From Reyranellaceae bacterium (GTDB lineage Bacteria; Pseudomonadota; Alphaproteobacteria; Reyranellales; JAQSWP01): DNA of 64,000 nucleotides. The stretch lies in contig JBFXDA010000003.1 in NCBI GenBank assembly GCA_050181585.1, forward strand, positions 80,607 through 144,606, given 5' to 3'. A program made the position numbers and the translations under genes. This document shows, in pieces, positions 19,370-19,666 of this stretch. Under the pieces are notes generated by a model, which ran no database searches, was not told the DNA's origin, and worked only from the letters and a program-made list of their open reading frames with translations. Positions within the stretch are counted from its first letter, which is position 1, and every line of letters begins with the position of its first letter.

Positions 19370-19666
19370 TTAGCGGGTGAAGATCGGCTTCGGTCCGCCG
19401 CCGCCACCGCCACCGCCGCCGCCGCCCGGAGGCGGAGGAGGAGGCGGGGGAGGCGGCGGTGGGGGCGGAGGCGGCGGACCGCTTCCCCCGCCGCCACCAC
19501 CGCCACCGCATTTCGCATTGGCGCCGCCGCAGCCCGCGGCCAGATCGACGAACGGTTTGCCCTGAATTCCATCGTTATGTGTGACGGGCACCGATGCGGA
19601 TGCGACGCCACTGAACAGCATTGCCGCGGCCAACCCGGCCGCGATCGACAATCCAAGACGTTTCAT
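19370..19666 (-). CDS. small Sec-exported protein with G8-S-G-P17-G11 low-complexity tail (unknown family)
   Basis: Signal peptide MKRLGLSIAAGLAAAMLFSGVASA|SV, a C-x7-C pair, then GGGGGGGGSG-P17-G11-PKPIFTR. Own AT-rich upstream region. GC3 is lower than in neighbouring genes (hand count). Confidence 0.6.
   Translation of the reverse strand: MKRLGLSIAAGLAAAMLFSGVASASVPVTHNDGIQGKPFVDLAAGCGGANAKCGGGGGGGGSGPPPPPPPPPPPPPPPPPGGGGGGGGGGGPKPIFTR
19391..19510. repeat. trinucleotide-periodic CCN / GGN / CCN block (self-complementary low-complexity DNA)
   Basis: Plus strand: CCN run 19391-19427, GGN run 19428-19478, CCN run 19479-19510. Both strands read as Gly/Pro. Confidence 0.9.

Follow-up and report, generated by a model that had tools for sequence, protein, structure and literature searches.

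A predicted exported mini-protein with a 17-proline run between two glycine runs in a Reyranellaceae bacterium, and its diverged homologue

Long proline runs are almost missing from model bacteria: in Escherichia coli 91% of polyproline tracts extend no further than PPP (PMC4218817), and the longest natural proline run of Bacillus subtilis comprises four residues (PMC12856214). A short minus-strand open reading frame in a Reyranellaceae bacterium would nevertheless encode 17 consecutive prolines, bracketed by runs of eight and eleven glycines. The frame lies in a stretch of 64,000 nucleotides of contig JBFXDA010000003.1, hereafter the window, and it raises two questions: is it a protein-coding gene, and, if so, what could a protein of this composition do in a bacterial cell?

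The frame (19370..19666, minus strand) runs from an ATG at 19666-19664 to a TAA at 19372-19370 and specifies a precursor of 98 aa (MKRLGLSIAAGLAAAMLFSGVASASVPVTHNDGIQGKPFVDLAAGCGGANAKCGGGGGGGGSGPPPPPPPPPPPPPPPPPGGGGGGGGGGGPKPIFTR; split at the predicted cut, MKRLGLSIAAGLAAAMLFSGVASA|SVPVTHNDGIQGKPFVDLAAGCGGANAKCGGGGGGGGSGPPPPPPPPPPPPPPPPPGGGGGGGGGGGPKPIFTR). Behind a signal peptide come about 20 ordinary residues, a C-x6-C pair and the tail G8-S-G-P17-G11-PKPIFTR. The signal peptide (residues 1–24; 19595..19666, minus strand) consists of MKR, the core LGLSIAAGLAAAMLF and SGVASA, with a predicted cut at ASA|SV and a Kyte–Doolittle 11-residue maximum of 2.31 at residue 8. The two cysteines, C46 and C53, belong to the motif AAGCGGANAKCGGG (residues 43–56; 19499..19540, minus strand). 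The low-complexity tract (residues 54–91; 19394..19507, minus strand) is made up of G8 at residues 54–61, Ser-Gly, 17 proline codons at residues 64–80 (19427..19477, minus strand) and G11 at residues 81–91, and the protein ends with PKPIFTR (19373..19393, minus strand). The original prediction, made by reading the letters, had given this frame and its tail exactly, but had counted the cysteine spacing as C-x7-C.

The same prediction recognised no known family, and homology searches with residues 1–57 and with the full length bear this out. No family of Pfam-A or NCBIfam matched the mini-protein at E <= 1. Against 5.8 billion clustered proteins, a word-indexed search returned nothing for the N-terminal 57 aa, a two-sequence profile of the N-terminal part found no match, and the full-length profile retrieved only lipoprotein linkers and low-complexity matches. 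HMMER with residues 1–57 against 1.84 billion representatives gave three matches, all repetitive or unrelated. No relative was detected by tblastn in plasmids and phages, a motif scan of viral contigs had no match, and the PDB sequence search returned only eukaryotic polyproline ligands of EVH1-type domains. In an exact look-up in a protein collection, the mini-protein was absent together with the RidA, CoaD and ABC ATPase proteins of the window, and the genome of the window lies outside that collection.

Scanning metagenome contigs for the back-translated pattern of residues 1–55 yielded, among the matches listed, one diverged homologue, on JGI contig Ga0062379_10008643 (locus L081), which brings the family to at least two members. 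The L081 mini-ORF (L081:1014-1325; MALTKTSALFAGLVLAFSLSSISVNA|TPVSGESKIENSATSLQFAAGCGGANAKCGGGSGSGGTVTPPPPPPPPPPPPPPPPPPPPSGGSGGSGGVGGVPRAR) has the same design: a Sec-type signal, some 18–20 variable residues, an identical AAGCGGANAKCGGG, a Gly/Ser-rich run, P20 aligned to the P17 of the window, a further Gly/Ser-rich run and an Arg end. Its signal (MALTK / TSALFAGLVLAFSL / SSISVNA|TP) has diverged and reaches a Kyte–Doolittle maximum of 2.49, and its C-terminal VPRAR is the counterpart of PKPIFTR, with Arg last in both. Inspection of either precursor shows the features of a Sec substrate of signal peptidase I, namely a basic n-region, a hydrophobic core of at least about 10 residues and small residues at -3/-1; the predicted mature products have 74 aa in the window and 77 aa in L081, at ~6.5-7.0 kDa and pI ~8.8-8.9. 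The Shine–Dalgarno sequence GGGGGT (19672..19677, minus strand), 5 nt ahead of the ATG, recurs in L081 as the same GGGGGT, 6 nt ahead. Among 81 fetched loci, the motif, proline runs of at least seven and small ORFs combining a signal peptide with Gly/Pro-rich sequence were found in the window and L081 only.

Comparison of the two genes addresses the first question. All 14 residues of the motif are identical between the window and L081, and the 8 nucleotide differences in its 14 codons are synonymous throughout and confined to codon position 3 (pS 0.71, pN 0 in a codon-wise comparison). Among the 17 aligned proline codons 11 differ, again at position 3 in 11 of 11 cases. The probability of such a position-3-only pattern by chance is 1.5e-4 for the motif (2.7e-5 by site counts) and 5.6e-6 for the proline run. 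The signal region (pN = 0.68) and the variable region (pN = 0.63) are both nearly saturated. Together, these contrasts point to a coding gene under purifying selection, and on this comparative evidence the mini-ORF is almost certainly a real protein-coding gene. Divergence between the two copies is ancient, yet motif, proline run and general layout persist; even in the signal region, despite its pN, a hydrophobic N-terminus and a small-x-small cleavage site are kept. In an ungapped block, the sense frame is better conserved (17/21 residues) than the other five; the wobble-coincident antisense frame reaches 14/20 and the remainder at most 8. An antisense mirror ORF of 62 aa (19377-19565, plus strand; P11-G17-P-L-P8...) results from GGN being the reverse complement of CCN, and it shares its wobble positions with the sense frame; being less conserved and broken in L081, it is probably not expressed as a protein.

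These results uphold the observation and part of the interpretation that had been given of the gene. Signal design, Shine–Dalgarno sequence, ATG and frame are all conserved in the diverged homologue, as expected for the genuine coding gene with a Sec-type signal that had been proposed, and of the N-terminal frameshifts or stops in close relatives that the original prediction named as evidence against it, none was seen in the diverged L081, where the frame stays open. The N-terminal conservation that it looked for holds for the motif, but not for the signal and variable regions. A P17 run bracketed by G8 and G11, which had been called extreme, is far beyond chance, and the independent homologue with P20 indicates a maintained feature.

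Because GGN pairs with CCN, the Gly-Pro-Gly tract is also a self-complementary RNA and an inverted repeat, a nucleotide-level property that the original prediction missed. Its best arms measure 36 nt and are 86% complementary. The 114-nt tract RNA folds into two hairpins (MFE -88.3 kcal/mol), in each of which one glycine run pairs with one half of P17, the first run with the first half and the second with the second, and the mini-gene region folds with z = -3.9. Synonymous permutations of the tract average -97.4 and recodings with genome codon usage -112.6; the real sequence is less stable than 99% of either set, and the L081 tract follows the same destabilising trend, at 88-91%. This weaker folding suggests that the RNA structure is a by-product trimmed by selection rather than a selected feature. 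Rare codons are correspondingly frequent in the tract: CCT and CCA account for 7 of 17 proline codons, compared with 3.4% genome-wide (P ~8e-7), and GGT and GGA for 8 of 20 glycine codons, compared with 6.1% (P ~1e-5). The mixing of synonymous codons keeps perfect period-3 runs to at most 14 nt in the window and 11 nt in L081; with genome codon usage the longest run of the window tract would average 24 nt. In its make-up the tract does not resemble a contingency locus prone to slippage. The low GC3 noted earlier was recovered (0.68 over the first 53 codons) and extends over the whole gene, at 0.67 versus 0.89-0.91 in four neighbouring genes; it could also reflect weak expression or a foreign origin. 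A search of 19250-19900 against Rfam gave only sub-threshold, miRNA-like hairpin matches.

The genomic setting adds a conserved partner that had likewise been overlooked. A convergent ridA gene (Rid / L-PSP family, with Pfam/NCBIfam matches; 18917..19303, plus strand) is the sole conserved neighbour, and the 3' end of ridA also lies downstream of the L081 mini-ORF in the same convergent orientation. Between the stop codons of the mini-gene and ridA lies a perfect hairpin with a 13-bp stem (19325..19352; 100% complementary). It has a homologue in L081 (~1352-1377), with one compensatory change of a T-A to a C-G pair, and is likely a bidirectional terminator of both genes. The U-run of this hairpin is good on the ridA side of the window (TTTTT) and poor in L081. 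No functional partner gene conserved with the mini-gene was found, the conserved context being ridA and the shared terminator, and the mini-gene would be monocistronic.

Upstream, the leader or promoter region (19667..19792, minus strand) is AT-rich as described, although its GC content is 0.44 (0.39-0.43 in 100-nt windows; 0.676 for the whole window) rather than the ~0.40 first counted; the two small hairpins reported there are present, at 19700-19720 and 19675-19695. The L081 leader is AT-rich as well (GC 0.46). Neither a sigma-70 consensus in the window leader nor a promoter- or operator-like motif common to the two leaders was found. In the AT-rich region between the mini-gene of L081 and its divergent SDR gene, two copies of CCAGTGTATCGA(G/T)ACA occur at 782-797 and 829-845, the second of which holds a perfect 14-bp palindrome, GTGTATCGATACAC; by its sequence this repeat is a candidate operator, and it has no counterpart in the window leader.

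An exported DUF3179 gene (19793-21199, minus strand; Pfam E = 3.6e-76) does lie directly upstream on the same strand, as had been pointed out. The link is not conserved: L081 has the divergent SDR gene in its place, and in the closest genome DUF3179 occurs without the mini-gene. With the adjacency kept in neither locus, functional coupling of the two genes was rejected. The DUF3179 protein carries a signal peptide of its own and a C-A-L-C (CxxC) motif, and DUF3179 is among the families with selenocysteine-containing members, UxxC/T (PMC9312934); judged by these features, it is probably an exported redox protein adjoining the disulfide-loop mini-protein. Beyond ridA, the window encodes a trmFO/GidA-family gene, uvrA and a CDF transporter. 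The CDF cation-efflux protein (16620-17309, plus strand) has a His-rich N-terminus, SHHNHSPGHGHGHGHGH, and the same gene stands beside an ArsR-like regulator in the closest genome. A yajC-secD-secF cluster is located at 10154-13469 (plus strand), a position that is not adjacent to the mini-ORF; its YajC begins with a short glycine run, AQGGGGGLGGEG.

The closest genome (L001), an unclassified alphaproteobacterial MAG, was reached through DUF3179, for which it gave the best match among GTDB representatives (72% identity). Its synteny equals that of the window, with DUF3179, convergent ridA, trmFO and CDF, but only 61 bp separate DUF3179 from ridA (L001 1759-1819), and a unit of ~490 bp corresponding to 19304-19792, that is, leader, ORF and hairpin, is missing. 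Within the 61-bp gap lies a long imperfect hairpin that is not related to the terminator of the window and L081. The gap implies that the mini-gene was either lost there or gained elsewhere, and its absence from this genome indicates that it is dispensable.

By exact look-up, a collection of 15 billion proteins includes the SDR protein encoded on the L081 contig but not the L081 mini-ORF, with either start; IMG evidently called the one gene and passed over the other. Under-reporting of the family is likely, and it need not be rare. The sequences indicate a new, unannotated small-protein family that combines known ingredients (a Sec signal, a disulfide loop and a Gly/Ser-polyproline spacer) in an extreme and unprecedented form.

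Several other readings of the locus have to be weighed, beginning with those in which the nucleotide sequence or its translation, rather than a mature protein, is what matters. An open frame arising by chance over a GC-rich inverted- or triplet-repeat tract or an RNA element would account for a GC3 of 0.67 where real genes have ~0.90, for the lack of any protein-database relative and of an IMG call on L081, and for the 36-nt, 86% complementary inverted repeat with its z of -3.9. It is nonetheless very improbable, given that all 8 motif and 11 proline-run differences are synonymous in the sense frame, that ATG, Shine–Dalgarno sequence and signal-peptide design are conserved, that codon choice destabilises the hairpins, that no Rfam family matches, and that the mirror frame on the other strand fares worse (14/20, broken in L081). 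A surface antigen varying in phase or length through slippage in the glycine and proline codon repeats, an idea of the original prediction, we regard as barely plausible. Amino-acid homopolymers are encoded by triplet repeats, and the proline runs of the two homologues differ in length; but the codons are mixed, with perfect period-3 stretches of no more than 14 nt where genome usage would average 24 nt, and the run-length comparison that was to reveal such variation gave a change from 17 to 20 only, across a saturated dS. The long perfect nucleotide repeat of a phase-variable contingency locus is found neither in the window (14 nt) nor in L081 (11 nt). The combination of an export signal with a Pro-based stalling sequence in a small ORF recalls the Sec-monitoring arrest peptides SecM, VemP, MifM and the RAPP-type ApdA/ApdP (PMC12992588), so that the mini-ORF might be a Sec- or EF-P-sensing regulatory ORF. 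Peptides working by such logic are known (PMC12992588), and here an N-terminal signal precedes the strongest known class of stalling sequence within very stable mRNA hairpins; P17 and P20 are expected to stall ribosomes without EF-P (PMC12856214), and a RAPP/RGPP-type motif is absent. Arrest peptides, however, lie directly upstream of the sec or yidC cistron that they regulate, whereas the mini-gene is followed by a terminator and convergent ridA in both loci, with no downstream cistron; yajC-secDF lies ~6-9 kb away on the other strand, and the conserved motif stands well upstream of the proline run and resembles a structural loop. A regulatory role of this kind seems highly unlikely.

Other alternatives accept an exported product and differ in its fate. 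The nearest parallels among the retrieved proteins are the N-terminal tethers of envelope-bound lipoproteins (e.g. P0005, P0009-P0011, P0013), in which, as in the mini-protein, a Cys precedes a flexible Gly/Ser run and an unbroken proline run. The profile search gave many lipoproteins built as LAGC-GGGSGG-P8-11-domain, an arrangement which resembles AAGC...C-GGGSGSGG-P20, and one might read AAGC as a lipobox with C46 lipidated and the Gly/Ser-polyproline tail as a classical tether. In those tethers, though, the Cys comes right after the hydrophobic core (LAGC), the proline run counts 7-11 residues and a folded domain follows; the mini-protein has a site of signal-peptidase-I type, a second Cys that closes a loop, 17–20 prolines, a second glycine run and no domain. 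AAGC lies 21-22 residues past the core, beyond a polar stretch (T, H, N, D, Q, K, D), Ala occupies position -3 in place of Leu, Val or Ile, and a normal AXA signal-peptidase-I site follows the core in both proteins. A lipobox [LVI][ASTVI][GAS]C directly after the core being absent, the protein was not assigned to the lipoprotein class, and this reading has very little to recommend it. A secreted peptide that targets another cell or protein, either bacteriocin-like or a ligand of polyproline-binding domains, with the disulfide loop as active determinant, is quite unlikely. The product is small, basic (pI ~8.8) and predicted to be exported with a disulfide loop, its only PDB similarity is to polyproline ligands of EVH1-type domains, and its distribution is patchy, with absence from L001; against this, no immunity, export or maturation genes lie nearby (the neighbours are DUF3179, ridA, trmFO and uvrA, or SDR in L081), plasmids and phages gave no matches, and the chromosomal synteny with ridA is conserved. 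McbA, the precursor of microcin B17, is a small peptide with a long glycine run and Cys residues, but it has a non-Sec leader, needs the adjacent McbBCD and contains no polyproline. The mini-protein shares the long glycine run and the cysteines, but its N-terminus is of Sec type and no cyclodehydratase or dehydrogenase genes occur among its neighbours, and a TOMM or microcin B17-like precursor was dismissed. Finally, the tail might pack on itself, with the glycine-rich segments antiparallel on the proline helix or with copies stacked, as a mixed polyproline/polyglycine-II mini-bundle or fibre, in place of a free spacer between floppy hinges. Glycine-rich polyproline-II (PPII) bundles, including helices of 6-7 consecutive glycines, are an established fold (PMC8409303), and those of the snow-flea antifreeze protein, the Obg N-domain and a phage spike tip domain (PMC8409303) are likewise small, glycine-rich, PPII-prone and disulfide-containing. 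The C-terminal segment of L081 has (S/V)-G-G four times, a period of 3 matching the three residues of a PPII turn; this XGG segment is the point of likeness to the bundles and the sole period-3 segment in either protein, the N-terminal Gly/Ser segment of L081 lacking the period. A disulfide is predicted nearby in both proteins, and the two glycine runs together approximate the proline run plus 4 (10+11 vs 17; 11+12/13 vs 20), a relation drawn from two sequences with fuzzy segment boundaries. Known bundles, on the other hand, consist of at least six short Gly-X-X helices joined by turns, without homopolymeric proline, and a PDB sequence search found no similarity of the mini-protein to them; proline has no NH donor, and an AlphaFold2 model from the single sequence (pLDDT 55) carries no tertiary information and shows no confident packing. 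Self-packing is an unlikely reading.

The explanation we prefer, an unannotated gene for a small exported protein that serves as a structural element of the envelope or periplasm, has about an even chance as a whole; that the protein is exported is, from the design of its signal, considerably more secure, and that its loop is a binding head and its tail a spacer is less likely than not. The precursor would be exported by Sec and cut after ASA24 by signal peptidase I, giving a basic product of 74 aa, ~6.5 kDa and pI ~8.8. In the periplasm, C46 and C53 would be oxidised to close an 8-residue loop, C-GGANAK-C, and the 17–20 prolines would form a stiff PPII rod of ~5-6 nm with glycine-rich flanks; at 3.1 Å per residue the computed lengths are ~5.3 nm for P17 and 6.2 nm for P20 (for PPII geometry and properties and the glycine-rich PPII background, see PMC8409303 and PMC12856214). 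The conserved loop may act as a head for attachment or recognition, with the Gly-Pro-Gly tail as a spacer of defined length. Translation of the proline run would need EF-P, and the unusual codon choice both weakens the extreme GGN:CCN hairpins of the mRNA and avoids slippery perfect repeats.

The guess of an envelope spacer derives from the order of Cys, flexible Gly/Ser and rigid polyproline that is shared with lipoprotein tethers. Extended PPII segments also serve as rigid connectors in the periplasm in TonB/TolA (PMC12204202) and in the o-spanin Rz1 (PMC5295617), the latter, which is also very small and exported, having a functional Cys. TonB differs in that its (EP)n(KP)n segment is part of a protein with a membrane anchor and domains, and Rz1 in being a lipoprotein of phages whose proline run is short; polyglycine flanks and the AAGCGGANAKCGGG motif are missing from both. 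The supposed spacer of the mini-protein has no folded domain at either end, and by analogy with these systems a spacer or rod function is a tentative suggestion. A bolder version, which we think doubtful, would make the mini-protein the founding member of an unseen family of exported mini-proteins, hidden from gene callers by a low-GC3, low-complexity frame. Its Gly-Pro-Gly tail would itself be a fold, either a proline helix clasped by two polyglycine-II strands, mirroring the GGN:CCN pairing of the mRNA, or a self-assembled PPII lattice in the envelope, and the protein would be the longest natural polyproline substrate of EF-P under purifying selection.

A run of 17–20 prolines under purifying selection offers a natural extreme test of EF-P-dependent translation and of the Sec export of a rigid PPII rod. 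The locus also illustrates that a conserved protein, predicted to be exported, can escape collections of 5.8-15 billion predicted proteins; in genomes of high GC content, frames of low GC3 and low complexity are passed over by gene callers. Should the tail prove to be a ruler or a PPII fold mixing proline and glycine, it would represent a minimal structural element new to the envelope of Alphaproteobacteria.
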